A stretch of 64,000 bases of DNA, from assembly GCA_964593355.1 (NCBI GenBank), contig CAZQHM010000002.1, forward strand, positions 99,747 to 163,746, given 5' to 3'. The first letter of the stretch is position 1. Every line of letters begins with the position of its first letter. The notes below the pieces were generated by a model. That model was not told the origin of the DNA and made no database searches. It worked only from the letters and a program-made list of their open reading frames with translations. This document shows, piece by piece, positions 12,150 to 27,806 of this stretch. A program made the position numbers and the translations under genes. Origin of the DNA: an uncultured Myxococcales bacterium (GTDB lineage: Bacteria > Myxococcota_A > UBA9042 > CAIXZC01).

Positions 12150-14447
12150 CTACTGCTCAATCCAGGAGTTGGTCCAGGCGGGTCGGGCAGGTAGCGGGTC
12201 GTAGCTGAGTCGGCCTTTCCAGTCTTCGTCAGTCAGTCGGTTGAACCCCGACTCGAAATGCTCATAGTAGGACGAGACCGGACCGACGTAGGCCCTGGTG
12301 CCGCAGGTGGTGTTCACCACCATGACCATGGCATTGGCATAGCCCGTTGCAACGTGGAGGATGTTGGTGCTGTTCGGGTCTGTGTGCACGTCGGCTACCG
12401 TGGGGTCGAAGTCGAAGGAGGTGTCGTTGCCGTTGAAGAAGAGGTTGGCGTACCAACCCGAGAAGGGCAACGAACCGCACATGGATTCGTCCTGCACCAG
12501 CTCCTTGATGAACTTGGTCTCCTCGGGCAGGCGAGGCTCCTGGGCAAGCTGCCGGTCTGCGATCTGCTTGAGCATGATGGCAGCGGTCTCAAGGTTGTTG
12601 AAGTAGGTTTCAGCTTGCTGCTTTCCGTAGGGGGCGACGTCCAGTTCCAGCCCCTGAAGCATGGCCCGACTTCCTTGGGCAAACTCGGCGATCTTCTGGT
12701 AGAAGGCCGGGATGGGCTCCACGTAACCGTCGGGATAGTCGCAGGCAACGCCGGTGTAAGACTGCTTGGCGTAGAGAATAGTGTCGTGTCTGAGCTCTGC
12801 CCAGGAGGCCAGCCCCGTGTGCATCAGCTTACGGGCATACTCTTGCGTCCGCATGGCCTCAGGGTAAGCGCTGCCTGAGAAATCGCCGCCAAGGCTGCGG
12901 ATAGAATCGAGCCAGACGTTGTACATGCTCTCTTGCCAGAAGGCCGGCGCATAAGCGTCCACAAGGCCACGCAAGACCGACAGGTTGCCGGAGTAGTGGT
13001 AGGTATCCAGCTCGGACTGAAGCGGAGGAAGAGCCTCCTGGAAGCCCAACACGAACATGGCATCCAGGGGGCTGGGCATGTATCGATGCTGCGCTTGGCC
13101 CTGGTAGTAGATTCTATCAAAGACAACATTGGAGAAAACATAGGAATCAACAACGAACCTTTGGCCCATGAAGAGGAAGATCGGGGGCAGAATCGTGGGC
13201 TTGTCGGACATAGGATCCACGGCGATGATCTGGCTGAGAATCTGCTGATTTCCAAACCCTCCGGACTCCAGAAGCTCCATGACGGGCTGAGCAACGGCGG
13301 GATCGGCAAGGTCACCCAGCGAGGGTGCCTCGGTCTGCGTCATGAACTGGTCCAACTGCGTAGGCGTCAGGTTGTCGCTCTTGCCAACGAAGACCTGTAT
13401 GGCCTTGTCGAAGGAGGCCCAACTCTCCAGCGACTGACTCTCAACGATGGTTCTTCGCATGATCTCCGATACCAGGAACTCACGGTGAAAGCGGGTAAGG
13501 ACTATCTCGGTCCTGCCCAGCCATATCATCGCCCTGAAATATTGCTCCAGCTCCTCGGACAGCGTGTAGTGCCCGCGGGGCTTGAACTGCGAGAAGTCAT
13601 AAGCACAACCGGGCCCCGCACATGGATACGGGCGTCCAAACAGGGTGATCAACTCGGGTTGCAGCCCTTCAACCTTGGCCAGCAGCTCGTCCCGAATCGC
13701 CACGTTCTCGTCGAAGATTGGTGCTACCGCTGCGCCAGACAGAAGCGATCGGGCCATGGTGTAGAAGAGATCCACGTCGCCCATGGCTTCTATCAAGAGA
13801 GGTTCTTGAACCCCCTGAGCAAGCTGGCCCAGTTGCTGGTGTGTGGCTTCCAGAATGGACGACATCAGCGGAATAAGCGTGCTCTCTTCAAATTCTCTGA
13901 GCATAGTATCATATGATTTATGCACAGCAAATAGGATTGAATCAGTTGTGATCAACACTGGGATGTGTTCTACGAACAGGTCCCGATACCCCATGGGATG
14001 GCTGGGGTACCTTACCGAGTCGATGACTGCGAAGCCCAACTGACCAATGGTCTCGAGATGCTTGGCGCTGAGCTGCAGCTTCTCAGTGATGAGGTCCATG
14101 AACTCTGCCTCCAGAGCGTCGAAACCTATGCCCGCAAGGTACGGCCGCTGCTGGTAGTGCTTCTCCATGAGCTGTTCAGTTGACATGTCCTGGGCCTCTG
14201 CCAACAGCGCCGCATGGACCTGCACCAACTTCTGCTGCTCCTCGGTGAGAGCCACGTCGCCATACTCGGGCTGGGTGATGTCCGGCTCCGGGTTCACCCC
14301 CATGTCGGGCTGGGCATGGTTGTCATCTTCGGAAATGGCATCGTCGGCCACCTCGGCCGGAGGCGAATCGCCGCATCCCGTGGGCAATAGCATCAGCATA
14401 GCGAGAAGGGCACTGGCCTTCAGAAAGGGGAATCTGGTGGGAGACAT
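12150..14447 (-). CDS. Large hypothetical lipoprotein, possibly DUF3160-like
   Basis: Start re-placed at MSPTRFPFLKASALLAMLMLLPTGCGDS (lipobox, upstream GGAGG). 765 aa with no catalytic motif recognised. The 93-aa N-terminal extension in the ORF track is rejected. Confidence 0.45.
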   Translation of the reverse strand: MSPTRFPFLKASALLAMLMLLPTGCGDSPPAEVADDAISEDDNHAQPDMGVNPEPDITQPEYGDVALTEEQQKLVQVHAALLAEAQDMSTEQLMEKHYQQRPYLAGIGFDALEAEFMDLITEKLQLSAKHLETIGQLGFAVIDSVRYPSHPMGYRDLFVEHIPVLITTDSILFAVHKSYDTMLREFEESTLIPLMSSILEATHQQLGQLAQGVQEPLLIEAMGDVDLFYTMARSLLSGAAVAPIFDENVAIRDELLAKVEGLQPELITLFGRPYPCAGPGCAYDFSQFKPRGHYTLSEELEQYFRAMIWLGRTEIVLTRFHREFLVSEIMRRTIVESQSLESWASFDKAIQVFVGKSDNLTPTQLDQFMTQTEAPSLGDLADPAVAQPVMELLESGGFGNQQILSQIIAVDPMSDKPTILPPIFLFMGQRFVVDSYVFSNVVFDRIYYQGQAQHRYMPSPLDAMFVLGFQEALPPLQSELDTYHYSGNLSVLRGLVDAYAPAFWQESMYNVWLDSIRSLGGDFSGSAYPEAMRTQEYARKLMHTGLASWAELRHDTILYAKQSYTGVACDYPDGYVEPIPAFYQKIAEFAQGSRAMLQGLELDVAPYGKQQAETYFNNLETAAIMLKQIADRQLAQEPRLPEETKFIKELVQDESMCGSLPFSGWYANLFFNGNDTSFDFDPTVADVHTDPNSTNILHVATGYANAMVMVVNTTCGTRAYVGPVSSYYEHFESGFNRLTDEDWKGRLSYDPLPARPAWTNSWIEQ

Positions 14448-14801
14448 GGCGAACCTCCGGAAAGTGGTGAAATAATGCCCAGATGGTGACCACCATTTAC
14501 AGCGTAGCCTCCCATCGAAGCAGTTGCTGGCAGATGGTGCAATAGTTATGCCAGTCTTCCGGACCTGTGTCGGATCGATGGTGCCCTTCTCAGACAGGAG
14601 CTGGGACTTCAGGCGGACGGATCCCTTCTTTGGTGGAAGGTGGTCCTTGTATCGCGGGCGCTGCTCAGGGGAGAAGAAACCATAACCGTCAGACTGCCAC
14701 TTCGGAGAGGCATGTCGGTCCACCACTGACGGTGGGACAGGATAGATCTGTCGTGCTGAAGAAGAACAGAGCAGCGAATCGGCTTTGGGATCGCCCCGGT
14801 G

Positions 14802-15041
14802 CTATTTCTCTGCCATCTTCCTGGCGCGTGAACGCAGAGCCTTTCTACGACGCCTCTCGGCCTCGCGATGCTTGCGCTTGATCTGCTCGCTGGGCTTCAA
14901 GAAGAACTTCCTCTTCTTGAGCTCTTTGTAGACTCCCTCGTTAGCCATCTTGCGCTTGAGGGCTCTAAGAGCGCGATCAACGTTTTCGTTCTCGACCTGG
15001 ACTTCTACCGGTCGATGCTCAACAACTTCTTTTGTCCTCAT
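14802..15041 (-). CDS. rpsU: 30S ribosomal protein S21
   Basis: VEVQVENENVDRALRALKRKMANEGVYKELKKRKFFLKPSEQIKRK and a basic C-terminal tail. Start at MRTKEVV with upstream AGGA. Confidence 0.8.
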   Translation of the reverse strand: MRTKEVVEHRPVEVQVENENVDRALRALKRKMANEGVYKELKKRKFFLKPSEQIKRKHREAERRRRKALRSRARKMAEK

Positions 15042-15218
15042 TCCTGTACACCATCCCTTCAAAGACAGTGGGCGGATTATGGGTAGGAGAGGGGTCGTTG
15101 TCAAGGATTTTCCTTACCGTTGCGCCCTCACGACCCCGAAGGACCCAACAGTCGCCCATTCGCTACCTTCCAACGGGCCATAACCGGCCCTATGGCCCAA
15201 TTTCCGCCTTTTACCCCG

Positions 15219-15235
15219 CTGGCACGGGTCATGCA
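15219..15235 (+). promoter_or_regulatory. Sigma-54 promoter (-24/-12) ctGGCACgggtcaTGCA
   Basis: TGGCAC-N5-ATGCA has correct GG-N10-GC spacing. It lies about 50 nt upstream of the ATG at 15289. Confidence 0.6.
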
Positions 15236-15288
15236 ACAGGCTATCCCGGGCTGGCCCGTAAGCCAGCCTCATATCCAAGGAGGATGTA

Positions 15289-15660
15289 ATGCCAGGATTC
15301 GACGGAACAGGACCCAGGGGCCAAGGACCCATGACCGGCGGTGGACGTGGTCGCTGCAGACCAGCCACTACGGCAGATGACAACGAGAGAAGCTCTGTTG
15401 CCAGCCAACCTCAGGCAGGACCGGCCGTAAACGGCGATGCAGCGCCAGGCAACCCAGCTCCGGCACAAGATGAGCTGTGGGGCGTTGGTCGCGGCGGAAG
15501 ACCTAGAGGCGGCGGCAACGGGCGCTGCTTTGGCGGTGGACGCGGGAACGGCAGAGGTCGAGGAGGCCGAGGAGGCGGCCAGGGACCAGGCGGTGGTGGT
15601 GGTGGTGGTGGCGGTGGTGGTGGTGGTGGCAGAGGTGGTAACGGATGGGGCGGGCGCTAG
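15289..15660 (+). CDS. Small Gly/Arg-rich protein with DUF5320-like N-terminus (MPGFDGTGPRGQGPMTGGGRGRC) and a poly-Gly C-terminal tract
   Basis: GGAGGA RBS. The N-terminal motif resembles the conserved DUF5320 start MPGxDGTGPxGxGPMTGRGxGxC. A (GGT)n microsatellite encodes G13. Confidence 0.55.
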   Translation: MPGFDGTGPRGQGPMTGGGRGRCRPATTADDNERSSVASQPQAGPAVNGDAAPGNPAPAQDELWGVGRGGRPRGGGNGRCFGGGRGNGRGRGGRGGGQGPGGGGGGGGGGGGGGRGGNGWGGR

Positions 15661-15663
15661 CGG

Positions 15664-16266
15664 CTACTCGTTAGGCTTCCAGATCTTCCAGACGTTGCCG
15701 GCGAGATCGGGCGAAACCTTCAACGTGGGTTGGCCCGGCTCCCAGCCCGCAGGACAAACCTCGGCGCCCTTGGTAGCACGAACGTGCTGATAGGCCTTGA
15801 GCTGACGGATGGACTCGGAAACCTTGCGTCCCACCGGCGGCGTCAGCATCTCGATGGCCTGAATGATCCCGTCGGAGTCGATGATGAACCGGCCGCGCAT
15901 GTCCACGCCCGCTGCCACATCGTACACGCCATAAACAGAACCTATCTGACCACCGGCGTCAGAGAGCATGGGGAACGGCACACCGCCATCCACCATCTTG
16001 CTGAGCTCTTGCTCCTGCCAGATCTTGTGGACGAATCGGCTGTCCGTGCTGCATGACAGCACCTGAACTCCCAGCTTCTCGAACTCATCGGCCTTGGCTG
16101 CGACCGCAGCCAGCTCGGTGGGTCAGACAAATGTGAAATCACCGGGGTAGAAGCAGAGAAAGACCCACTTCCCCCTGAACTCTGAGAGCCTGACGTTCTT
16201 GAATCCGCCCTGATAATAGGCAGAGGCTTCGAAATCCGGAGCTTCCTGTCCAACCATAACGCCCAT
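15664..16266 (-). CDS. 2-Cys peroxiredoxin (AhpC/Tsa family) with selenocysteine at the peroxidatic position; in-frame TGA at 16123-16125
   Basis: Two ORF-track pieces (16123..16452 and 15664..16062) are in the same frame. Read-through gives FYPGDFTFV-U-PTELAAVAAKADEFEKLGVQVLSCSTD, the canonical FTFVCPTE motif. The resolving Cys lies in EVCPAGW. AGGAG RBS before MGVMVGQEAPDF. Confidence 0.75.
16093..16113 (-). promoter_or_regulatory. Bacterial SECIS hairpin (mRNA GGCUGCG-GU-CGCAGCC) beginning 11 nt 3' of the UGA
   Basis: Perfect 7-bp stem with a G/U-containing apical loop. Near-identical in architecture to the E. coli fdhF SECIS apex GGUUGCAGGUCUGCACC. Canonical 11-nt spacing from UGA. Confidence 0.65.
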
Positions 16267-16513
16267 GTTCTTCTTCTCCTCGGTTTTGGGTTCGTTCTCT
16301 CGGCCCGCCGCCAACATCGGCTTCTTCACGGGCCCTCCTGCCTTAGAAACACATCCTGTCTTGGGTTCTTCAGCCAATTCTCCCTCCATGGTTAGTTGGT
16401 CTACGAAACAACACCGTTGCCCGTCAATCAGCTGCCATCTGCCAATGGCCAATACAGAAGGCTCTTACCCCCTGATCGGCCCTGAACTCTGACTGGATTC
16501 GATGGGCACCGGA

Positions 16514-17788
16514 TCAATGATCACATACATTGCTGCCAGTAACAAGAATTCCGTCCATGAACTCCTGCAAAATCGTTGCAGGGGGCGCCACGGGTGCCCC
16601 AACAACCACCTCGATGCTGTTCTGGTTGAAGAGGCTCTGGGCCCTGGAGCCCATCCCGCCGGCAATAATCAGGTTTGCTCCCTGCTCGTGAAGCCACTTG
16701 GGGTAGGTCCCAGGCTCGTGCGGAGGCGGAGTCAGCTGCGACTCGTTCAGAATCGTCTTCGCAGCCATGTCCACCTTGTAAAGATAGAACTTCTCGCAGT
16801 GCCCGAAATGGGACGAAAGCTGACCGCCCGTTACCGGTATGGCTACCATCATGATCTCTCCCTCCTTGCTTACTACGCTCTCTGCGCTGGGATTCTCCTG
16901 GCTCAGCTCCTTCTCAAGCAGCTTCCGGACAATCCTTCCAAAGGCCATGGCCGTCTGTGAGTGGGGATGCGAATGAACTATCGGATCGCCCGATTCCCCC
17001 GACCCCACCACGTCCGCCTCGATAGGAATTGCACTCAAGAATGGAACCCCCATCTCCTCTGCCATGGCCTCCCCTCCACCCGAACCAAAGATATGCACAA
17101 CCTCACCACACTTCGGACAGGCAAATCCGCTCATATTCTCTACTACACCCAAAACAGGCAGCTTCAGATGCTCGCAGAATACGACGCAACGTCGAACATC
17201 CTGCACTGCTACACCCTGGGGCGTGGTGACAACCACAGCCCCGTCGGCATCCTCGATGAGCTGCGCCACCGCTAACGGCTCGTCGCCTGTGCCGGGAGGT
17301 GAGTCGATTACCAGGTAGTCCAGATCTCCCCACGCAACATCCTTAAGAAACTGCTTGATAACCGAGTACTTCCTGGGGCCACGCCAGATCACCGCCTCGT
17401 CACGACCACGCAGCAGAAAGCCGATGGACATGACGCTGATGCTGCCAGGACCATATTCCAGCTCCACGGGGAAGAGCCCCCCCTCGAAACCCTCTACAGG
17501 CGCCCCCTCGAGGTCCAACATCTTGGGCACACTGGGCCCGTGAATATCCACATCCAACAACCCCACCTTCTTGCCAGCCAGCGCCAACGCCGCAGCAAGA
17601 TTCACCGCTACCGTGCTCTTGCCAACGCCTCCCTTGCCGGAAAGCACCAGGACCTTGTGCTTGATATGGCACATGCGGGCCTGCAACTCCTGCCGCTCCT
17701 GAAAGGCCTGTTCGTCCTCACCCGATCTCCGAGAGTGAGCTGAACAGGAAGAATCGTTACATGTTCCACACTGTTTCTCTTCAGACAT
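16514..17788 (-). CDS. Mrp/ApbC/NBP35 family Fe-S cluster carrier ATPase fused to a C-terminal NifX/NafY-like (dinitrogenase FeMo-cofactor family, PF02579-like) domain
   Basis: Cys-rich N-terminus CGTCNDSSCSAH. Deviant Walker A VLSGKGGVGKST. Mrp signature CPKCG. C-terminal MMVAIPVTGGQLSSHFGHCEKFYLY...IIAGGMGSRAQ. Confidence 0.8.
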   Translation of the reverse strand: MSEEKQCGTCNDSSCSAHSRRSGEDEQAFQERQELQARMCHIKHKVLVLSGKGGVGKSTVAVNLAAALALAGKKVGLLDVDIHGPSVPKMLDLEGAPVEGFEGGLFPVELEYGPGSISVMSIGFLLRGRDEAVIWRGPRKYSVIKQFLKDVAWGDLDYLVIDSPPGTGDEPLAVAQLIEDADGAVVVTTPQGVAVQDVRRCVVFCEHLKLPVLGVVENMSGFACPKCGEVVHIFGSGGGEAMAEEMGVPFLSAIPIEADVVGSGESGDPIVHSHPHSQTAMAFGRIVRKLLEKELSQENPSAESVVSKEGEIMMVAIPVTGGQLSSHFGHCEKFYLYKVDMAAKTILNESQLTPPPHEPGTYPKWLHEQGANLIIAGGMGSRAQSLFNQNSIEVVVGAPVAPPATILQEFMDGILVTGSNVCDH

Positions 17789-17820
17789 GTCTTTTTCCTT
17801 TATGCATCATAAACTTAAAA

Positions 17821-19701
17821 CTAATGCAAGCCTAGTTCTTCGCTGACTTTTTGCCATAAAGCCACGATGTCCTTGGCAGCACCCTCCTCGCTGAACTCCA
17901 CTATAGAAACCCCGGCAACCTGGGCCGCCGTAACCTCCTTGTCATAACGAATCTTCCCCAATACCGCCAGACCCAACTCGTTTGCCTCACGCTCTATGCG
18001 CTGGGCGAGCTCCGGATTAATGTCCGCCTTGTTGATAGCAACCCCCGTCCGGATCTTGAATTGAGCGGCCAACTCCGCCACCCGCCGCAGGTCATGAAGA
18101 CCCGACAGCGTTGGCTCGGTCACAACCAGAATCATGTCGGCACCAGTGATCGAGGCAATGACGGGACAGCCGATTCCCGGCGATCCGTCGCACAGCAGTA
18201 ACCCTGAGCCGTTTAGCTGGGCCACTGCCTTGCCCTCACGGCGTACCAGCGAGACCAGCTTCCCGCTGTTCTCTTGAGCTATGCCCAGCTTGGCATGAAC
18301 CATGGGCCCGTGCCGCGCCACGGACTGGAACCACGACCCGCTGTTCACCGGCTCCGCTGATATGGCCCGCTCCGGGCAATGGTCGACACAGACCCCGCAC
18401 CCCTCGCAGGCAATGCTGTCCACCTGGTAAGCCTGGTAGCCTGCGCCGGTCATTGGCGTATCAGCCGTGGGCCTGACTATAGCGTCGTACCTGCAGAGGC
18501 TATGGCAGACCCCGCAGGATATGCACAACTCAGGGTCCACAGCAGCTATCTTGCTACCCGAAAAGGGCCACTGGTTCTTCACCTGTGGAGAGAGCACCAG
18601 GTGCAGGTCCGCCGCATCGACATCACAATCCACCGTGGTGCTGCCTGGCGCCAGCGCACTGAACGACGCACAAACACTGGTCTTTCCCGTGCCTCCCTTT
18701 CCGCTGATAATCACCAGCTCCTTGGGAGACCTCTTCTTCCCAGCTGCTCGCAACTCCGCCGATGGGAATCGCGACACCTCTCCTACCTCCAGAAGCGGAC
18801 GCTCAACCTTGCCTTCCCTACTCTTGCCAGCCGCTGCCATCTGCTTCATAGCATCGAATGTCCTGAGAAGAGACTCTCCAAGTTCGGGAAGGACGTTCAA
18901 CGCCATCTCCCCAATTGAGTAAGCCCTTGCTATCCTCATGTCGTGCGGAACCCTGAGGACCACCGGGATGCCCTCTTGACTGCAATACTCATCCACCAGA
19001 TCCGACCCAACGCCGTCTCTGTTGATGGCTACTCCGAACGGCACCCCCACAGCCCGAACCATCTCCACAGCCAATATCAGGTCGTTCAGACCAAACGGGG
19101 TCGGCTCAGTCACCAGCAAGACCGCATCGGAATTCGAAACCGTCGTGATCACCGGGCAGGATGTGCCCGGAGGCGCATCGAGAACCGCTACACAATCCGC
19201 CGGTATGGCATCAACCACAGCCCTGATTATTGGGGGCGCCATGGCCTCCCCTACCGTCAGGCGACCCTGAATGTGGGCCAACAAACCAGAAGTTCCCCTC
19301 TCCACCACACCGATGGGACGCTCTACCTCCGTTATGGCGCCAAACTTGCACGCCAGAAGACATCCGCCACACCCATGACATAGCTTGGGGAACGTCAGCA
19401 CCTGCTTAGGAAGGGAAACTATCGCAGAAAACCTACAGGCCTCACCGCAAGCCCCACAATGGGTGCATCGCTCCGCATCAACCTGCGGCACCGGAATCGA
19501 GACATCCCTGCTACTCAATCCCGATGGCTTCAAGAAGATGTGCCCGTTGGGCTCCTCTACATCACAATCCACGTAGGCAGTACAACCCCCACTATTGGCC
19601 GACACACGCCTCGACAGCGCCAACGCCAGATTGGTCGCTATGGTCGTCTTGCCCGTGCCACCCTTGCCGCTGGCTACAGCAAGCCTGAACTCTCTACCCA
19701 T
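17821..19701 (-). CDS. Tandem fusion of two MinD/CooC-type P-loop ATPases, each with an inserted 2x[4Fe-4S] ferredoxin domain (COG1149-like)
   Basis: Two deviant Walker A motifs (ASGKGGTGKTT and ISGKGGTGKTS). Each is followed by a CDV(E/D) segment and two CxxCxxCxxxC ferredoxin motifs: CTHCGACGEAC and CHGCGGCLLAC in the first half, CISCGVCHSLC and CEGCGVCVDHC in the second. Confidence 0.8.
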   Translation of the reverse strand: MGREFRLAVASGKGGTGKTTIATNLALALSRRVSANSGGCTAYVDCDVEEPNGHIFLKPSGLSSRDVSIPVPQVDAERCTHCGACGEACRFSAIVSLPKQVLTFPKLCHGCGGCLLACKFGAITEVERPIGVVERGTSGLLAHIQGRLTVGEAMAPPIIRAVVDAIPADCVAVLDAPPGTSCPVITTVSNSDAVLLVTEPTPFGLNDLILAVEMVRAVGVPFGVAINRDGVGSDLVDEYCSQEGIPVVLRVPHDMRIARAYSIGEMALNVLPELGESLLRTFDAMKQMAAAGKSREGKVERPLLEVGEVSRFPSAELRAAGKKRSPKELVIISGKGGTGKTSVCASFSALAPGSTTVDCDVDAADLHLVLSPQVKNQWPFSGSKIAAVDPELCISCGVCHSLCRYDAIVRPTADTPMTGAGYQAYQVDSIACEGCGVCVDHCPERAISAEPVNSGSWFQSVARHGPMVHAKLGIAQENSGKLVSLVRREGKAVAQLNGSGLLLCDGSPGIGCPVIASITGADMILVVTEPTLSGLHDLRRVAELAAQFKIRTGVAINKADINPELAQRIEREANELGLAVLGKIRYDKEVTAAQVAGVSIVEFSEEGAAKDIVALWQKVSEELGLH

Positions 19702-19724
19702 ATCCGCCTCGCTTGAGTTGTTCG

Positions 19725-20603
19725 CTACTTCTTCATGCCCGAGTGGCTCTCTACATTGGGCCCCGATGCTGCCTTCAGTCCGCCGCCCTTAAACACCGAT
19801 ACCGCCTCCTCAACACTGCCCGACATTCCGATGTGAACCGCTATCCCAGCAGCACTCAAGGTCTGGTGCGCGTTGGGCCCGCAGTTGCCGGTCAACACAG
19901 CGGAAACACCCTTGTGGGCCAACATCTGCGCTGTCTGAATGCCCGCACCACCACCCAACGAACCGGCATCGTTCTCCAAAGACTCGAATTCCATACTATC
20001 GGGATCAATAATAATGAACCACGAGCACCGACCGAATCTTGAGTCCATGGCTGACGTCAGCTCTGGACCCGTAGATGTAACTGCAATTTTTCCCATTTTT
20101 TTATCTCCTTTGGATATTTCTAACCTATTATCATCTCCCAGTAATATACTACTTCGCTGCTGACCGCGGCGCCCTCCTCTTCCTGCACCGCCCCCACCTG
20201 ACTCACCCCTTCCACCGCCGCCACATCCACGAGTTCCACCACTCCCTCGTCGACCATGCCCGCGGCAGCACCCGGGCATCGCAAACGCTTCCGCTGAGAG
20301 ACTCCCCGCGAGAAGAGCTTCGATCACATCATCCTGAGTGCCCGAGACAAAAGAGAGCAACTCTATGCCCGCATCTACCAACTCGCCATGAAGCGATCTT
20401 GAGACCGCCCCACACACCAGCTGCTGTACGCCAAGGTTCCTCAGCACAACTACTCGCTCCGACAAACCCACACTTCCCAATGCCTCAGTGCGGCGTGATA
20501 CGATCGCCCCTCCGTCGACATCGAGCACCACAACCTCCCTGCTCACGTCGAACACCGGCGACACCCGCCCCTGCCATACCGCTATTGCTACTCTTCGTGA
20601 CAT
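19725..20603 (-). CDS. Protein with two NifX/NafY/NifB-C-like domains (PF02579-like) joined by a Gly/Arg/Cys-rich linker
   Basis: First domain: RVAIAVWQGRVSPVFDVSREVVVLDVDGG. Second domain: KIAVTSTGPELTSAMDSRFGRCSWFIIID...VLTGNCGPNAHQTLSAAGIAV. Linker: MPGCCRGHGRRGSGGTRGCGGGG. ATG at 20601-20603 with a GAAAGGA RBS; the ORF-track start at 20621 is a TTG. Confidence 0.7.
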   Translation of the reverse strand: MSRRVAIAVWQGRVSPVFDVSREVVVLDVDGGAIVSRRTEALGSVGLSERVVVLRNLGVQQLVCGAVSRSLHGELVDAGIELLSFVSGTQDDVIEALLAGSLSAEAFAMPGCCRGHGRRGSGGTRGCGGGGRGESGGGGAGRGGRRGQQRSSILLGDDNRLEISKGDKKMGKIAVTSTGPELTSAMDSRFGRCSWFIIIDPDSMEFESLENDAGSLGGGAGIQTAQMLAHKGVSAVLTGNCGPNAHQTLSAAGIAVHIGMSGSVEEAVSVFKGGGLKAASGPNVESHSGMKK

Positions 20604-20653
20604 GGTCCTTTCTTCCGCCAATCAAACAGGGCCCCGTGCCCCCGCTGGCTCTA

Positions 20654-20670
20654 TGCATATCTTGGACCAT
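20654..20670 (-). promoter_or_regulatory. Candidate sigma-54 promoter aTGGtCCaagatATGCAt
   Basis: GG-N10-GC spacing is correct. It lies about 50 nt upstream of the tandem NifX-like gene start. It is weaker than the element at 15219. Confidence 0.35.
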
Positions 20671-20921
20671 AAGAAATGCCCCCGTCGGCAATGCCGGGCC
20701 CTCCAGGAGATGCGTCATCGCTTTCGCCCCCAACGAGGCTACTGCCTTCCGACTTCAAGCCCCAATGCCCAGGGAATCGGGCGGACCTCGCTGAACTGAG
20801 CCCCGTCGCCTCTCCGGCCACGGCACTCTCGCCCAGTCCACTGGTCACGGAAATCATAAGGTAGCGCTTATGCGACTCTTTGCGGAAAAACGGTGGCGTT
20901 CATGCGACTCTAGAGCGCCCG

Positions 20922-22304
20922 TCAGAACCTTCCCCCCCGACCATCCCTTCTGGGCAATTGCAGACCAAGAGCCTTAACCTTCCGGAAGAACGTGCTCTTG
21001 TGCATGCCCAACTCTCTGGCAGCTTCTAACCTGTTGCCTCCGCAACGCTCCAGTGCCGCCAGAATCGCCTCTGTCTCGGTCTGGTGAATGGACTCTGCCA
21101 GCGAATGGGAGGATGCCTGCCTCTTGCCAAGAGGAACAAGAACCTCCGGCAAGTGGCTGACTTCTATTTGACCTTTATGAACAAGCACAAAGCTGTGCTC
21201 GATAATATTCTGCAATTCCCTTACATTGCCAGGGAAATGGTGTGCCATCAGCAATCCCAGCACATCAGGACTCACACCGGTTATGTCTTTGTTTTGTAAT
21301 GAATTATAGAGCGAAATGAAGTGTTGCACCAGTAATGGTATATCATCTTTTCTGTCACGCAACGGTGGCAGATGCAGCATCATTACATTGATTCTGTAAT
21401 ACAAATCATGACGAAATTTGCCTTCGGCTACCATCGTTTCAAGATTTCTATTGGTCGCTACCACTATTCTAACGTCCGCCTTTTCTGTCTTTGTAGAACC
21501 AAGAGGCTCGAAGAGCCGCTCCTGAATCACCCGAAGCAGACGAACCTGCATGGCTTGCGATATCTCCCCAATTTCGTCCAGAAAGAGGGTACCGCCCCTC
21601 GCCAGAGAAAACCTGCCTGGCTTGTCTTTGGTCGCTCCCGTGAAGGCTCCCGACTTGTACCCGAAGAGCTCCGACTCAAGGAGAGTGTCCGGAAGAGCCC
21701 CGCAGTTCACAGCAACGAAGGGACCGTTCTTACGTGCCGAAAGACTATGAATCGCCCTCGCTGCCAGTTCCTTTCCAGTGCCAGTCTCTCCAGTAAGCAG
21801 CACGGTGCTCTCACTCTCTGCAATGAGCGGAATCATCTGCAGAATGTGCCTCATCGAAGGACTTCGGCTTACGATGTCTCCCACCTGGTGACGACCGAGT
21901 ATCTCCTTTCTGAGCTCCTCAATAATCGTCAGATCTCTGAAGGTCTCGGCCCCGCCAACAGTAGCCCCGCTCGCATCCTTCAGCAGCGCCGTCGATACCG
22001 ACACGGGTATCCTGTTGCCCTCGGCGTTGACAATGAATGCGGCCCTGTTGACCACAGGCACCCCCTCATCGAGCGTCCTCCGCAGAGCGCAGTCCGTCTC
22101 ACACATGCTGGCCCTGAAGACATCAGAGCAGCGGCGGCCCATAGCCTCTTCCCTGCCTATACCGGTGATACGCTCCGCTGCCCTATTAAACGAGGTTACC
22201 CGCCACTGGTCATCCACAGTGAAGACCCCGTCAGAGATGCTTTCAAGAATCGCATCAGTAGGTATTGGTGGCGCCGCTTCTGGTTTTCCGTTTCGTCGAC
22301 TCAT
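20922..22304 (-). CDS. Sigma-54-dependent transcriptional activator (NtrC family) with an N-terminal Cys-containing PAS sensor and a C-terminal Fis-type HTH
   Basis: AAA+ sigma54-interaction motifs TGETGTGKELAARAIH, GAFTGA and RELQN. PAS segment contains CSDVFRASMCETDCAL. HTH segment is HKSTFFRKVKALG. Confidence 0.85.
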   Translation of the reverse strand: MSRRNGKPEAAPPIPTDAILESISDGVFTVDDQWRVTSFNRAAERITGIGREEAMGRRCSDVFRASMCETDCALRRTLDEGVPVVNRAAFIVNAEGNRIPVSVSTALLKDASGATVGGAETFRDLTIIEELRKEILGRHQVGDIVSRSPSMRHILQMIPLIAESESTVLLTGETGTGKELAARAIHSLSARKNGPFVAVNCGALPDTLLESELFGYKSGAFTGATKDKPGRFSLARGGTLFLDEIGEISQAMQVRLLRVIQERLFEPLGSTKTEKADVRIVVATNRNLETMVAEGKFRHDLYYRINVMMLHLPPLRDRKDDIPLLVQHFISLYNSLQNKDITGVSPDVLGLLMAHHFPGNVRELQNIIEHSFVLVHKGQIEVSHLPEVLVPLGKRQASSHSLAESIHQTETEAILAALERCGGNRLEAARELGMHKSTFFRKVKALGLQLPRRDGRGGRF

Positions 22305-22443
22305 GGCCCCTGCATGGTAGTGTCCCCTGGTCCGAAGTCAAGGTTGCAAGGCTCGGCCGCTGGACGAGCAACCGCTCGTGACACGGGACCAAGGAGATGG
22401 TATCTCTGTGGCCGAATCGGCCCGTTGCATAATGGAGGGGGTC

Positions 22444-23085
22444 ATGGCGCACCGCTTTTCCAGGCTTCGTTTGTGCCTGCCTTTCTGGCGCCGGCTTTTC
22501 CTCTTGGCGCCGGTTCTGTTAGCGCCGGCCCTCCTCTCCGGTTGTGCCTTCGGTGGAGGCGGTGGTCTGGGCATTACAGGCGATACCAGGGGTTCCGTGG
22601 GGATTATGCTGACTGGCCACGTCCAGACTTGGGGCATCCGGGCCGAACCGGAGAAGGGCAAGCGCCACGAGACCGCCGCCGTGCTCATGCCGGCCCAGGT
22701 CTCCGGAGGCTACGAATTCAACCCATCGGCCTGGGTACTGCGGCTAGACGCCCCGGGCATCGGTGTCGTCTCCGACAGTGTGGATAACAGCTCTTTTGGA
22801 CTCTCCAGCTCTCTTCACCTGCGAGCGCTTATTCGATGGGAGGATGGAGCAGAGGCCGCCACCACCGCACTGGGGCCCGCCATTCGACTTGCGTGGCTGC
22901 CACATCTCTCCACAAGCCAGTTACCCAGGCTCGATTCCAGACCCGAGTGGCCCGATGGTTGGGAGTTTCACTCCGTGGGACCTGCCATGGACATATCCGT
23001 GCTCACCGATGACAAGGGCTGGTTCGGCTCCATGTTCCTTGGCGGGCAGTACCAGTACCTATCCTATTTCTACATGGGTTTGTGA
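22444..23085 (+). CDS. Hypothetical lipoprotein
   Basis: MAHRFSRLRLCLPFWRRLFLLAPVLLAPALLSGCAFGG (lipobox LSGC). GGAGGGGG RBS upstream of ATG 22444. Confidence 0.5.
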   Translation: MAHRFSRLRLCLPFWRRLFLLAPVLLAPALLSGCAFGGGGGLGITGDTRGSVGIMLTGHVQTWGIRAEPEKGKRHETAAVLMPAQVSGGYEFNPSAWVLRLDAPGIGVVSDSVDNSSFGLSSSLHLRALIRWEDGAEAATTALGPAIRLAWLPHLSTSQLPRLDSRPEWPDGWEFHSVGPAMDISVLTDDKGWFGSMFLGGQYQYLSYFYMGL

Positions 23086-23720: not shown

Positions 23721-23981
23721 CTGCCTCCACCCCCAGCGGCCGCCATACCCAGTTTCCGCATGGAATGGGTAGCTGGCTGAGCGGGCCCAAGTCCACGCTT
23801 CCTTCGCTTTCGGACCACCGGTGAAGGTCTTTGACTTGTCCCCAATTCTAACCGAACATGGGGCGTGCAAGTGGACCGGGTGAGTCAGCCGGTCCGCCCC
23901 GCTTGCCTATTATTACCCATATTTCATCGATTCTGTCCGAGAGCTAGATTTTGGTTAAGGCTTTCCCTTGGAGGTGCGACT

Positions 23982-26900
23982 GTGGACAAGAAAATCGAAG
24001 TCAGTAGTCGCAGCTTTGGAATTACAATAGCTTTAATTTTGGTTCTTATGAGTATGGTACTAATTGGTGGCAGTCTTCTATATCTGAATCATTGGTCTGG
24101 TCATTATCGTAAGCAGGTTGAAGATCAGCTTCTAAGCGTTGCCAGCCTCAAATCCGATCGGCTGGCAGAATATATGGAAGAGACTACTTCTATTGGTAGA
24201 TTCGTGGCCAGCAACCCTTATTTTACCGGATTGGTATCAAGCTTTATGGCAAATGCCGACAATAAACTTGCCAAAGATATTGCTAGCTGTCTTAAACATA
24301 TGCGCAGCGTATTCCCTGTGGACGCTGTTATGCTCCTCGACCCCACAGGGGCGAAGCTCATCGTCGATTCAGACCGAGATGAGAGGCCCCTCTCCCAGAT
24401 CAGCCCTACAACATTGACGGCCCTCCACAGGGGCGAAACTGTCTTTGAAGACTTTTATCTAAATCAGCATAACGACATGCCATTTTTGAAGCTACTAAGT
24501 CCAGTTTTTGCTCCTGATTCTAAGAATAAAATGATAGCCATCCTTGCGCTGAGAATTGATCCCAACCAATATATATATCCTTTGCTTGCCTCCTGGCCAA
24601 CAGAATCTCCATCGTCGGAGACTTTGATGATGCGGCGTGATGGTGAACGGGCAACCTATCTGAACAACGTCAGGTTCAAAGCCAACACAGCGATGAGGCT
24701 TTCCTTTGCCGTGGACGAAAGTCAGGTTCCTGCGGTCAGGGCCATCGCTGGTGAACGGGGGATCCTGGAGGGTCCCGACTACCGCGGGGTGCCCACTATC
24801 GCCGCTGCAACGGAGGTGCCAGGGTCGCCGTGGGTACTGGTGGCTCGAATTGACCGGGAAGAGGTGCTCGGGTCACTGAAATCTGAGGGCCGAACGGTGG
24901 TCGGATTGGCTCTCCTGCTGACCGTCTCCGTTTGGGCCGCAATGTATCTTGTTTGGCGCAAACGAAAGGCGCTGTTCAAGCGAGCCATCGCGGTAGCCCG
25001 AAAAGACCAGTTGGAGGCTAACAACCGCTTCGAGGCTCTCTTTGAGAACCTTGGCGTCGGGGTCTCGGTTGTTGACCCTGCATTGAAGGTGGTCAAGACG
25101 AATCGGCTTCTGAACCAGTGGTTCCCAGGCGGAGTCACCGAGGGACGCAGCCGCTGCGAAGGAGGGCTTTGTGGCAAGGATGGGGTTGTTCATTGCGCTG
25201 GATGCGCCGTCTCCAGGTCCTTGAAGGACGGCGGAACCCACGAGGGAGACATCGTCGTCGATACCGCTGAGGGGCGGCGAGTTCTTCGGGCCATTGCAAC
25301 ACCTCTCAGGGGCCCTGACGGCCGCATCGAGGCGGCCATTGAGGTTCTTGATGATGTAACGGAGCGGCGAGGGCTGGCAGCGGAGATCTCGGCCCGAGAG
25401 TCTGTGCTTTCGGCCATAACCGGGTCGGCCCAAGACGCCATCGTGATGATGGATGATGGTGGCCTGATCACGTTCTGGAATCCTGCCGCTGAGCGCATGT
25501 TTGGCCGCCAGGCGTCGGAGGCAGTAGGAAAGACTCTCCACATTCTCATCGCCCCCGAGCGATTCAGGGCGGCCCATGGCAAAGCCTTTGAGCGCTTTTT
25601 GCTTACAGGCGAAGGCGATGCCGTGGGCAAGACTCTGGAGTTGCCGGCGCTGCACTCCGACGGCCACGAGATTGACGTGTCGTTGTCCTTGTCCGCAGTC
25701 AAGTTGCAGGGCAAATGGAATGCCGTGGGCATTATGCGGGATATCACGCAGCAGAAGGTTGAACGTGAGCAACTCCGCATAGCCAATGAGCAGCTTGAAC
25801 ACGCCAATCTGGCCTTGGCATCGGCGGCCGAAGAGTCCAAGCGCATGGCCCGGGAAGCTGATGCTGCCAGCGTAGCCAAAAGCCAGTTCCTCGCAAATAT
25901 GAGCCACGAGATCAGAACTCCCATGAATGGCGTCATCGGCATGACAGGGCTGCTCATGGAGACCACCCTGACACCAGAGCAGAGGCGCTTCACCGAGGTC
26001 ATTCAGTCCAGCGGTGATGCTCTGCTGGATGTCATCAACGATATCTTGGACTTCTCTAAGATCGAGGCCGACAAGCTGGAAATGGAGGAACTTGACTTCG
26101 ACCTTCGGAATACCGTTGAGGATGCCGCTGAGTTGCTTGCCTTCAAGGCACAAGAAAAGGAGCTGGAGTTCGTTTGCCGAATTGACCCCGATGTGCCCTC
26201 TCGACTGGTTGGCGATCCCGGGCGGATTCGGCAGGTGCTCGTGAACCTGGGGGGTAACGCCGTTAAGTTCACCAGCAAAGGAGAAGTGGTAGTGGACGTT
26301 TCGCTTGTCTCTGAGGATGAGCGCACCGCTACAGTGCGATTCGAGGTGCGGGACACCGGTATCGGGATTCCGCCGGAGAAGCTGGGGTTGGTGTTTCGAG
26401 CTTTTGAGCAGGTGGACGCATCAACAACCCGAAGATACGGTGGCACCGGCCTTGGGCTGGCCATCTGCCAGAGAATCGTTGACCGCATGGGTGGTCAGAT
26501 AGCCGTGGAGAGCGAACTTGGGCTCGGCTCGACCTTCCGATTCACGCTGACATTGGGCAAGCAGCCTGTATCGCAGCGTCCCACCATGCCGCAGTGGGGT
26601 GATATATCCGGGCTGCGAGTGCTGGCGGTGGACGATAACGCGACCAACAGGCTGGTGGTCTCAGAGCAGCTGTCCTCCTGGGGAGTCGAGGTGGAGGTTC
26701 GTTCCTCGGGGCTCGAGGGTATTGAAGTGATGCGACAAGCAGCGGAAGCCGGCCGTCCCTTTGATGTGCTGCTCACAGACATGCAGATGCCCGATATGGA
26801 TGGCGAGGCCTTGGGGGTGGCAGTTAAGGCCGATCCGCTGCTGAGGCGCACACAGGTGGTTGTTCTGACATCGGTTGGTCGCCGGGGAGATGCCAAACGC

Positions 26901-27806
26901 CTTCGCTGTCTGGGATTCTCTGCCTATCTGACCAAGCCGGTCAAACAATCGCACCTGTACGAGTGCCTGGCCCGACTGGTAGGTGGAGGCTTTGATGACG
27001 CTGCCAATGGGCACCTGATCACCAAGCACAGCCTGGAAGACGCTCGTCGGGGTGAGACCACAGTGTTGCTGGTTGAGGATCATCCCACGAATCAGCTGGT
27101 GGCCATGAAGATCTTGGAGAAGTTGGGCTATCAGGCTTTGGCCGTATTCAACGGCGCAGAGGCTCTCCAAGCGTTGAAGGAGCGTCTGTTCGATGTCGTG
27201 CTCATGGATGTCCAGATGCCCGTGATGGATGGGTTCGAAGCTACTCGTCGCATTCGCAGCGGTGAGTCGGGAGTGCTCAACCCCCGTGTGCCCATCATCG
27301 CCATGACCGCACACGCCGTGAAAGGTGACCGTGAGCGCTGTCTCGACCAGGGCATGGACGACTACGTCAGCAAACCCGTTGATGCCGCCAAACTCGTGGA
27401 GGCCTTGGACCGATGCCTTCAACGCCCCGATGAGGTTTCCAACCCACCCACAGTCTCCACGCCCAACGCCACGGCAGAGCCCCACGCGGCCGTGTTCGAT
27501 AGAGAGGCTCTCTTCCGACGCCTAATGGAGGACGAGGAGCTTCTCTCCGAGGTCCTTGAGGGGTTCCTTGATGACCTGCCCAGTCAGTTGACGGCCTTGA
27601 ATGCAGCGCTGGTTGCTGGTGACCTGGAGGCCGTGGCCAGGGGTGCGCATACGGTAAAGGGTGCCGCCGCAAACGTCGGGGCCATGAAGCTGAGTGCCGC
27701 TGCACTGGCCCTGGAGCAGGCCGTTAAGCTGGGAGACTTGGCTGATTTGAACAGGTTCATGGATAGTCTTCGAAGAGCCTTCGAAGAGTTCAGAAAAGCA
27801 ATATAA
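23982..27806 (+). CDS. Hybrid sensor histidine kinase: periplasmic double-Cache-like sensor, TM, two PAS, HisKA, HATPase, two receiver domains and a C-terminal Hpt
   Basis: H-box SHEIRTPMNGVIGM. G-boxes GTGLGLAICQ. Receivers VLAVDDNATNRLV...DVLLTDMQMPDMDG and VLLVEDHPTNQLV...DVVLMDVQMPVMDG. Hpt segment AHTVKGAAANVGA. GTG start with GGAGG 7 nt upstream. Confidence 0.85.
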   Translation: MDKKIEVSSRSFGITIALILVLMSMVLIGGSLLYLNHWSGHYRKQVEDQLLSVASLKSDRLAEYMEETTSIGRFVASNPYFTGLVSSFMANADNKLAKDIASCLKHMRSVFPVDAVMLLDPTGAKLIVDSDRDERPLSQISPTTLTALHRGETVFEDFYLNQHNDMPFLKLLSPVFAPDSKNKMIAILALRIDPNQYIYPLLASWPTESPSSETLMMRRDGERATYLNNVRFKANTAMRLSFAVDESQVPAVRAIAGERGILEGPDYRGVPTIAAATEVPGSPWVLVARIDREEVLGSLKSEGRTVVGLALLLTVSVWAAMYLVWRKRKALFKRAIAVARKDQLEANNRFEALFENLGVGVSVVDPALKVVKTNRLLNQWFPGGVTEGRSRCEGGLCGKDGVVHCAGCAVSRSLKDGGTHEGDIVVDTAEGRRVLRAIATPLRGPDGRIEAAIEVLDDVTERRGLAAEISARESVLSAITGSAQDAIVMMDDGGLITFWNPAAERMFGRQASEAVGKTLHILIAPERFRAAHGKAFERFLLTGEGDAVGKTLELPALHSDGHEIDVSLSLSAVKLQGKWNAVGIMRDITQQKVEREQLRIANEQLEHANLALASAAEESKRMAREADAASVAKSQFLANMSHEIRTPMNGVIGMTGLLMETTLTPEQRRFTEVIQSSGDALLDVINDILDFSKIEADKLEMEELDFDLRNTVEDAAELLAFKAQEKELEFVCRIDPDVPSRLVGDPGRIRQVLVNLGGNAVKFTSKGEVVVDVSLVSEDERTATVRFEVRDTGIGIPPEKLGLVFRAFEQVDASTTRRYGGTGLGLAICQRIVDRMGGQIAVESELGLGSTFRFTLTLGKQPVSQRPTMPQWGDISGLRVLAVDDNATNRLVVSEQLSSWGVEVEVRSSGLEGIEVMRQAAEAGRPFDVLLTDMQMPDMDGEALGVAVKADPLLRRTQVVVLTSVGRRGDAKRLRCLGFSAYLTKPVKQSHLYECLARLVGGGFDDAANGHLITKHSLEDARRGETTVLLVEDHPTNQLVAMKILEKLGYQALAVFNGAEALQALKERLFDVVLMDVQMPVMDGFEATRRIRSGESGVLNPRVPIIAMTAHAVKGDRERCLDQGMDDYVSKPVDAAKLVEALDRCLQRPDEVSNPPTVSTPNATAEPHAAVFDREALFRRLMEDEELLSEVLEGFLDDLPSQLTALNAALVAGDLEAVARGAHTVKGAAANVGAMKLSAAALALEQAVKLGDLADLNRFMDSLRRAFEEFRKAI

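Follow-up and report, generated by a model that had tools for sequence, protein, structure and literature searches.

Six adjacent genes in metagenome-derived DNA of an uncultured Myxococcales bacterium raise the question of which metalloprotein system they encode and how its expression is controlled. The genes occupy positions 15289 to 22304 of a stretch of 64,000 nt (contig CAZQHM010000002.1, positions 99,747 to 163,746 of the forward strand), which was analysed as a whole and is called the window below. Judged by its domains, gene order and regulatory signals, the locus is very probably a compact, partly fused version of the ORP (orange protein) gene set, which specifies a metalloprotein system of anaerobes, and includes the gene for the dedicated regulator OrpR. 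The ORP of Desulfovibrio gigas carries a non-covalent Mo/Cu-sulfide cluster, and relatives of Orp5 carry a [2Fe-2S] cluster; a link of the ORP complex to cell division has been proposed in the literature. The six genes are the following.

15289-15660, plus strand: gene for a DUF5320-like Gly/Arg-rich protein of 123 aa with an N-terminal match to PF17253
15664-16377, minus strand: prxU, selenocysteine (Sec) 2-Cys peroxiredoxin (NCBIfam NF040737, peroxi_PrxU)
16514-17788, minus strand: mrpORP (orp9), Mrp/NBP35 Fe-S carrier ATPase with a C-terminal NifX-like domain, 424 aa (ParA/NUBPL, PF10609, and PF02579)
17821-19701, minus strand: orp3-orp4 fusion, two MinD/CooC-type P-loop ATPase units, each with a ferredoxin insert of two [4Fe-4S] motifs, 626 aa (Pfam CbiA twice, Fer4 four times)
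19725-20603, minus strand: orp5-orp8 fusion, 292 aa with two PF02579 domains (Pfam), composed of an Orp5-like NifX domain (aa 1-108), an Arg/Gly-rich tail with a putative former spacer (aa 109-166) and an ORP domain (aa 167-287)
20922-22304, minus strand: orpR, sigma-54 activator with PAS, AAA+ and Fis-type helix-turn-helix (HTH) domains, 460 aa (Pfam PAS_9, Sigma54_activat, AAA_lid_14, HTH_8)

All six genes were found in the order and on the strands given in an earlier note on this DNA. Its calls of NifX-like, MinD-ferredoxin, Mrp-NifX and PAS activator domains were confirmed by Pfam searches, its intergenic gaps of 23 and 32 nt were correct, and its general description of a set of Fe-S/metallocluster proteins controlled by sigma-54 and an enhancer-binding protein (EBP) was supported.

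The ORP complex of Desulfovibrio vulgaris Hildenborough (DvH) comprises Orp3 and Orp4 (MinD-like, with two [4Fe-4S] motifs each), Orp5 and Orp8 (NifX-like) and Orp9 (MrpORP); this composition and the function of MrpORP have been published (PMC6345978). The DvH genes form two sigma-54 operons flanking the activator DVU2106, which is OrpR (PMC6345978; PMC3897727; PMC4641369). As the regulator (OrpR) and the carrier (MrpORP; PMC6345978) have been named and an ORP structure (2WFB) has been solved, the view that neighbourhoods of this kind are poorly characterised had to be abandoned.

Identity of the encoded proteins

The identification was based on the MrpORP and PrxU models, which were both passed, on ORP structure 2WFB as the top structure match, on the Orp3/4-type ATPase-ferredoxin protein, on the Orp5-type domain and on the cysteine triad of OrpR. 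The MrpORP protein scored 508.3 bits with the equivalog model NF041136 of NCBIfam (cut-off, 450 bits). Its Walker A motif GKGGVGKST and the motif C224-P-K-C227 were invariant in the alignment of homologues. More than 8000 homologues were obtained at an E value of 1e-30 or lower, and the best 120 all contained both domains. The combination of Mrp and NifX, previously regarded as an unusual chimera, is thus the defining architecture of MrpORP. The published MrpORP proteins (Orp9/DVU2109 and Dde3202; PMC6345978) have the same two-domain layout, deviant Walker A motif and CXXC motif; no difference was detected at the sequence level, and the activity of the window protein is predicted.

The C-terminal domain of the 292-aa tandem protein matched the ORP of D. 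gigas best among solved structures (2WFB; E 5.9e-22, residues 1-114 of 123), followed by MTH1175 (1EO1; E 7e-20). It aligned with both over the full length and differs from them in being fused behind an Orp5-like domain. Of the best 120 ORP-domain homologues, 65 have a DUF5320-type Gly/Met/Arg and coiled-coil tail fused to their C-terminus; the window protein has none. The N-terminal domain is PF02579-like and contains the ICGAIS cysteine and the (A/S)MPGC motif of Orp5-like proteins, which occupy the position of the first gene beside OrpR in 13 loci. In nearly all loci the Orp5-like proteins show the conserved (A/S)MPGC motif followed by an Arg/Gly-rich C-terminal tail. The segment MPGCCRGHGRRGSGG... 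of the window protein, with its MPGCC and the RG-rich residues behind it, is this native tail and was wrongly taken for a linker that echoes the N-terminus of DUF5320. Some Orp5-like proteins in the comparison loci (in the set L084, L086, L088 and L090) also had a C-terminal CxxC...CPKC zinc ribbon after the Arg/Gly tail.

The regulator contains the canonical GAFTGA loop, and its PAS domain carries C59, C68 and C72 together with D61. The spacing is Cx8Cx3C and not Cx7Cx3C as given before. This pattern with D or E was kept in all 14 aligned homologues from orp loci. The window OrpR was 51-63% identical to EBPs adjoining orp genes in other loci; an OrpR-type EBP of Pseudodesulfovibrio, with the same cysteine triad and the loop variant GAFTDA, was 52% identical. 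In DvH OrpR, a redox-sensing [4Fe-4S] cluster in the PAS domain needs C52, C61 and C65, and a D/E is conserved at position 54; the protein is active at low potential and loses its activation on oxidation (PMC8359166). The suggestion that the PAS cysteines form a redox sensor agrees with this published work and was in that sense already known.

Genomic neighbourhoods were compared in 80 loci around Mrp homologues, a non-exhaustive sample in which D. vulgaris is not included, and in a dozen contigs around closer relatives. The names of the metagenome-assembled genomes (MAGs) from which these loci come are database labels. The order OrpR, Orp5-like protein, ORP, MinD-ferredoxin, MinD-ferredoxin, MrpORP recurred under the labels Smithella, Verrucomicrobiota, Planctomycetia, Spirochaetes, UBP1 and Myxococcota. 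According to the 2021 OrpR paper, the regulator seems restricted to Deltaproteobacteria. OrpR-type activators with the cysteine triad adjoined orp genes with strong sigma-54 promoters in seven of the comparison loci (L007, L009, L013, L017, L021, L024 and L027), which are labelled as Verrucomicrobiota, UBP1, Planctomycetia/Planctomycetaceae and Spirochaetes MAGs.

The window encodes the same protein types as DvH orp2 (DVU2103-2105), orp1 (DVU2107-2109) and orpR (DVU2106), as judged by profiles and published descriptions. Common to both are the PAS-AAA+-HTH activator of sigma-54 with a Cx8Cx3C plus D/E site and two sigma-54 promoters preceded by activator sites; in the window, both promoters and sites are predicted. 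In contrast to the two divergent operons that flank orpR in DvH, the window has one operon and a single convergent gene; Orp3 is fused to Orp4 and Orp5 to Orp8, the activator loop is GAFTGA instead of GAFTDA, the candidate site reads GTCGCA-N4-CGCYAC instead of GGGCGYRTTTTGCGCCC, no consensus for the integration host factor (IHF) is present, and a prxU gene is appended.

The locus is a recognisable variant of the ORP system and no new type of system. Its variant traits are the two subunit fusions, the attached prxU gene and the separately promoted small Gly/Arg-rich gene. Particular to this locus are the rarity of the Orp5-ORP fusion with its retained internal start, the truncation of the DUF5320 gene, whose sigma-54 promoter is accompanied by a shared upstream element, and the appended position of PrxU.

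Promoters and candidate OrpR sites

The regulatory features detected around the genes were as follows.

15150-15167, plus strand: candidate OrpR upstream activating site 3, AGTCGCCCATTCGCTACC, exact copy of an 18-nt element
15220-15235, plus strand: predicted sigma-54 promoter of the DUF5320-like gene, TGGCACGGGTCATGCA (TGGCAC-N5-ATGCA), 10 of 11 consensus positions, GG-N10-GC spacing
20654-20669, minus strand: candidate sigma-54 promoter of the orp operon, TGGTCCAAGATATGCA, 8 of 11 consensus positions, 51 nt before ATG 20603
20860-20877, minus strand: candidate OrpR upstream activating site 2, AGTCGCATAAGCGCTACC, exact copy of the 18-nt element
20892-20909, minus strand: candidate OrpR upstream activating site 1, AGTCGCATGAACGCCACC, exact copy of the 18-nt element
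22314-22341, minus strand: sigma-70-like candidate promoter of orpR, TTGACT-16-TACCAT, 9 of 12 positions in a consensus scan (weak evidence)

The predicted plus-strand sigma-54 promoter, which had been placed at 15219, was present 53 nt upstream of the ATG at 15289, with the ribosome-binding site AAGGAGG in between. With up to two mismatches, the sigma-54 pattern occurred 31 times in the window (expected, 36.6) and is by itself not rarer than chance, so that this promoter is supported by its position and context. On the minus strand, TGGTCCAAGATATGCA was the sole correctly spaced GG-N10-GC element in the 300 nt that precede the first orp gene, and it was identical in an independently assembled contig (L091). 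In 13 of 13 comparison loci, a sigma-54 promoter with 9 to 11 of 11 consensus positions was located at the equivalent place before the first orp gene. Transcription of orpR itself depends on sigma-70 in DvH (PMC3897727).

The 18-nt element AGTCGC-N5-CGCYACC occurred in three exact copies in the 64 kb, and no copies with one mismatch were present elsewhere. Sites 1 and 2 lie directly downstream of the orpR stop codon with their centres 32 bp apart. Site 3 lies about 87 nt upstream of the predicted transcript start of the DUF5320-like gene, which is similar to the position of the OrpR site of DvH orp2 at -88 (PMC3897727). The chance of a match specified by 13 bases within the 200-nt region of site 3 was estimated at about 1e-5. 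As the element lies only upstream of the two sigma-54 promoters in the window, it suggests one regulon, and both convergent units are likely to be co-regulated by OrpR through these candidate sites. In L004 and L084 the sigma-54 promoters of the orp genes are preceded by perfect palindromes, GTCGCA-N4-TGCGAC. Their half-site is identical to the left half of the element, GTCGCA, which is also similar to one half of the DvH site (GGCGCA). Between candidate site 3 and the predicted promoter of the DUF5320-like gene lies an inverted repeat, GGGCCATA-N8-TATGGCCC (15175-15198, plus strand), which might serve as a second operator or to bend the DNA.

Several observations weigh against an OrpR-controlled ORP system of this form. 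The candidate promoter of the orp operon matches the consensus weakly (TGGTCC in place of TGGCAC). It is separated from the candidate OrpR sites by 190-220 nt, roughly double the spacing found in DvH and in relatives. The definition of the 18-nt element was made post hoc, from copies already seen. These copies match the palindrome of L004 and L084 at 10 of 12 positions, a degree of likeness that chance often produces (14 times per 100 kb on each strand) and that was not used as evidence alone. The DvH site GGGCGYRTTTTGCGCCC is not present as such, and the IHF consensus WATCARNNNNTTR had no match in either regulatory region, although DvH needs IHF. No rpoN gene was seen among the window proteins scanned.

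The gene behind the plus-strand promoter was examined with the PF17253 profile. The first 40 aa alone scored 39.5 bits against a cut-off of 27 (E 1.3e-9), with residues 1-30 aligned to positions 1-30 of the 99 profile positions, but the full protein gave no match at an E value of 0.01 or lower. The family combines an N-terminal MPxxDxTGPxGxGPxTG motif with a C-terminal coiled coil; in the window protein the coiled coil is absent and a poly-Gly/Arg tail is present instead. The earlier assignment as DUF5320-like therefore holds for the N-terminal 30 residues and not for the protein as a whole. Judged by this match, the protein is a truncated relative of PF17253, like that in L008 and the first copies in L017 and L060. 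At 15592-15629 on the plus strand the gene contains a tandem repeat, a (GGT)~13 tract within a run of 14 glycines, which is a likely site of length variation by slippage. In the loci examined, DUF5320 genes were regular members of orp clusters, usually inside the operon and sometimes convergent to MrpORP. Stand-alone DUF5320 genes in L092 and L040 had sigma-54 promoters matching 10 of 11 positions. A literature search on DUF5320 and DVU2107 yielded nothing useful.

The adjoining prxU gene and a proposed scheme of control

The prxU product scored 370 bits with model NF040737, or 382.8 bits when an N-terminal extension was included (profile positions 2-232; cut-off, 270). The in-frame TGA at 16123-16125 takes the place of the peroxidatic cysteine in FTFV-U-PTE, and the resolving cysteine motif EVCPAGW is present. 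The start codon is most likely the ATG at 16377 and not that at 16266, since the alignment with the PrxU profile starts at position 2 when the extension MEGELAEEPKTGCVSKAGGPVKKP is included, and since the PrxU of Smithella has this extension too. The gap to mrpORP, stated before as 247 nt, is therefore 136 nt. This orthologue from Smithella (L004) also has its TGA at the equivalent codon. Sec-peroxiredoxins are a known family of bacterial selenoproteins (PMC1794560), and the window gene agrees with the PrxU type (NF040737; PMC1794560) in peroxidatic Sec, N-terminal extension and resolving cysteine. In contrast to the other PrxU-type genes in the survey, it is located directly after an orp operon.

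A hairpin resembling a selenocysteine insertion sequence (SECIS), GGCUGC-GGUC-GCAGCC, lies 11 nt after the UGA (16096-16111, minus strand) in the centroid structure. The folding energy of the 63-nt stretch containing it was indistinguishable from that of shuffled sequences (z -0.18). The hairpin is compatible with Sec decoding and is no proof of it. A scan of positions 14700-22500 against Rfam gave no match at an E value of 1 or lower, and no tRNA-Sec was found in the 64-kb window.

The earlier note had coupled the locus to a selenoprotein. PrxU does adjoin the orp genes here, but such a linkage was absent from the other orp loci examined and is peculiar to this lineage. It is about equally likely that PrxU is a passenger or a member of the regulon. 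As a passenger, prxU would merely adjoin the orp operon and have its own peroxide-responsive or constitutive regulation without a functional tie to ORP, and this comes close to an even chance. It accords with the absence of PrxU beside MrpORP in the other loci, with the distance of 6 kb between the PrxU orthologue and the orp genes in Smithella, and with a moderately stable hairpin, itself not significant, into which the 136-nt gap folds. In addition, OrpR shuts its targets off under oxidising conditions (PMC8359166), the opposite of what would be expected for a peroxidase. On the other hand, prxU lies on the same strand as the orp operon, and scans of the gap revealed no match to a sigma-70 or sigma-54 promoter and no terminator. 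As neither promoter nor terminator was detected, prxU is probably carried on the minus-strand orp transcript, and co-transcription with mrpORP is possible. A peroxiredoxin with Cys instead of Sec, encoded 78 nt downstream of MrpORP in a Victivallales MAG, further hints at a recurrent association.

The genes prxU and the DUF5320-like gene are convergent, with their stop codons 3 nt apart (15660-15664). Terminator and sigma-70 scans between the stops were without result. With the stops so close and no terminator-like structure detected, the convergent transcripts would overlap or collide at their 3' ends.

The proposed mechanism starts from OrpR. Its first three steps have been established experimentally in D. 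vulgaris and are transferred to the window by homology. The Cx8Cx3C plus Asp site in the PAS domain of OrpR would bind a [4Fe-4S] cluster. As long as the redox potential is low, the AAA+ domain could act on sigma-54 RNA polymerase and remodel it; a rise in potential would lead to oxidation or loss of the cluster and to a block of activation by the PAS domain. In the window, OrpR is then predicted to bind the three 18-nt copies, two just downstream of orpR and one upstream of the DUF5320-like gene, and to fire the two convergent sigma-54 promoters from these sites. The minus-strand transcript would yield Orp5-ORP with its two NifX-like cluster-binding domains, Orp3-Orp4 with two MinD-type ATPases and two [4Fe-4S] clusters each, MrpORP and probably PrxU. 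MrpORP would act as an ATP-dependent Fe-S carrier that matures the other Orp proteins. From the plus-strand transcript the small Gly/Arg-rich DUF5320-type protein would be made, a putative regular accessory of orp clusters.

A further-reaching proposal joins these points. The OrpR regulon may have been rewired into two convergent sigma-54 units that recruited PrxU as a peroxide guard, with the DUF5320 protein as a sixth, separately dosed component and the fusions as 'Rosetta stones'. This combination is speculative and, taken as a whole, rather unlikely. If it were true, PrxU and the oxygen-labile ORP complex would be produced at the same time under reducing conditions, so that the complex has its own protection against peroxide. 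The low-complexity tail of the DUF5320 protein, like the tails on Orp5 and many ORP homologues, would mediate assembly of the complex, and the fusions would fix Orp5 and ORP, and Orp3 and Orp4, as direct partners. The recurrence of DUF5320 genes, here with an OrpR-type promoter of their own, nominates an overlooked component of ORP, and the position of prxU provides a testable link between ORP and peroxide defence.

Fused subunits and alternative origins of the gene set

The set might instead be a generic NifX-like/MinD-ferredoxin/Mrp neighbourhood of the MTH1175/COG1149 type, unrelated to the ORP of Desulfovibrio, with an EBP that senses something besides redox. In archaea and many phyla, similar gene sets do occur with no OrpR-like gene nearby (e.g., L005, L006, L008 and L079). 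Moreover, the ORP proteins have no established function, and the DvH proteins themselves were outside the alignments made here. However, this explanation has to contend with a match of MrpORP at the equivalog level, with ORP itself as the best solved structure, with sites shared upstream of two sigma-54 promoters, and with the similarity of the regulator to the Pseudodesulfovibrio EBP, which has both the cysteine triad and the GAFTDA variant of DvH. It is accordingly improbable, and assignment to the ORP system was retained.

The two fusions were considered separately, as frameshifts or the loss of stop codons in a contig assembled from a metagenome could have produced them. In the public annotation of the source contig, the tandem gene is split. 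Among the comparison loci, 20 from other phyla encode the two MinD-ferredoxin proteins in separate adjacent open reading frames (ORFs); their NifX-like pair is separate too, often with overlapping ORFs, so that a single indel could fuse the partners. Against such an artefact stands the independent contig L091, assembled by the Joint Genome Institute (JGI) from another sample. Over 4.5 kb it differed by 17 substitutions and not a single indel (99.6% identity), and it contained the same tandem ORF of 298 codons and a 626-aa protein with 99% identity. As other fused homologues exist as well, among them at least 120 clusters of Orp3-Orp4 proteins, both fusions are genuine, and an origin as assembly or sequencing artefacts is very improbable. 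Nitrogenase FeMo-cofactor biosynthesis by NifX/NafY-type carriers and a NifH-like ATPase, suggested by the Pfam name of PF02579 ('dinitrogenase iron-molybdenum cofactor') and weak Fer4_NifH matches, can practically be dismissed, as nifHDK, nifEN and nifB were not found in the flanks examined, the NifH model scored 25.6 bits against a cut-off of 394, and the NifX-like domains group with ORP/MTH1175. Readings of the ATPases as CooC or as cell-division MinD were also rejected; no partner genes were nearby and the family scores were far under the cut-offs.

The description of the locus as unusually fused was only partly correct. The Orp5-ORP tandem is indeed rare, but the Mrp-NifX combination is canonical and the double MinD-ferredoxin fusion is common. 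The best 120 clusters of the latter were 603-741 aa long and 56-61% identical to the window protein at 98-100% query coverage. The few named ones carried the labels Myxococcales, Polyangia or Myxococcota. The two halves of the window protein were 28% identical to each other. One fused Orp3-Orp4 homologue (P0184, 741 aa) included a NifX domain as well. The Orp5-ORP tandem was represented by three other clusters among 1015 matches (291-335 aa, 37-39% identity, 97% coverage). One of these lineages shows the same arrangement as the window, in which orpR and the tandem gene are accompanied by a convergent DUF5320 gene; the sigma-54 promoter of the latter matches 10 of 11 positions.

Within the tandem gene, the Orp5 tail is followed by a 57-nt AT-rich stretch with the sequence AAGGAGA located 7 nt before the ATG of the ORP domain. 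This stretch looks like an old intergenic spacer that is read through after loss of the orp5 stop codon. The retained Shine-Dalgarno sequence and ATG (20094-20110, minus strand) were identified by direct reading of the sequence. In the public annotation of the source contig this internal ATG is the start of a 123-aa ORP protein, from which the N-terminal domain is missing. Free ORP may therefore be made by internal initiation in addition to the fusion.

An AlphaFold (AF2) model of the tandem protein showed two confident alpha/beta domains, with block means of the predicted local distance difference test (pLDDT) mostly between 84 and 97, and a disordered linker at residues 109-166 (pLDDT below 50). 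No confident packing between the domains was obtained (predicted template modelling score 0.50), so that a fixed Orp5-ORP interface was neither supported nor refuted. By analogy with D. vulgaris, where the counterparts of the fused subunits are already known to belong to one physical complex, the fusions provide indirect support for contacts between Orp3 and Orp4 and between Orp5 and ORP. The ORP complex is widespread in anaerobes; natural fusions, of which Orp3-Orp4 is common and Orp5-ORP rare, assign partners and could thereby guide structural work on it.

The Myxococcota-type cluster L083 (OrpR, Orp5, ORP, DUF5320, fused Orp3-4, MrpORP) had the same order as the window, with the regulator upstream on the same strand, and clusters of this type share the fused double ATPase with 58-61% identity. 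Unlike the window, L083 has Orp5 and ORP as separate overlapping genes, the DUF5320 gene inside the operon and no PrxU. Recurrent additional neighbours of orp genes in L084, L086, L088 and L090 were DUF364/DUF4213, FeoA/FeoB, NifU_N with a class-V aminotransferase, ARMT1-like, Zn_ribbon_8, rhodanese and DUF134 proteins.

The overall picture of the ORP system is unchanged by these results; their main outcome is the re-identification of a known cluster that is fragmented in public gene calls. Such fragmentation was seen in the calls on both L001 (source contig ena:ERZ27257504:k141_263100) and L091. PrxU was split at the UGA into products of 84 aa and 132 aa, the tandem Orp5-ORP appeared as a 123-aa (or 89-aa) piece together with spurious small ORFs, and OrpR was cut to 406 aa with the loss of half of its PAS domain. 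Because of this fragmentation, the protein database has no entry for the fused tandem protein.

Two further sigma-54-type elements were observed outside the locus. The element TGGCATAACTATTGCA (one mismatch; 14538-14553, minus strand) lies about 91 nt upstream of the likely start at 14447 of a DUF3160 lipoprotein gene (12150-14447), which could be a second sigma-54 target beside the orp locus. A perfect TGGCAC-N5-TTGCA was located at 24806-24821 on the minus strand, antisense inside a hybrid histidine kinase gene (23865-27806), and is probably due to chance.

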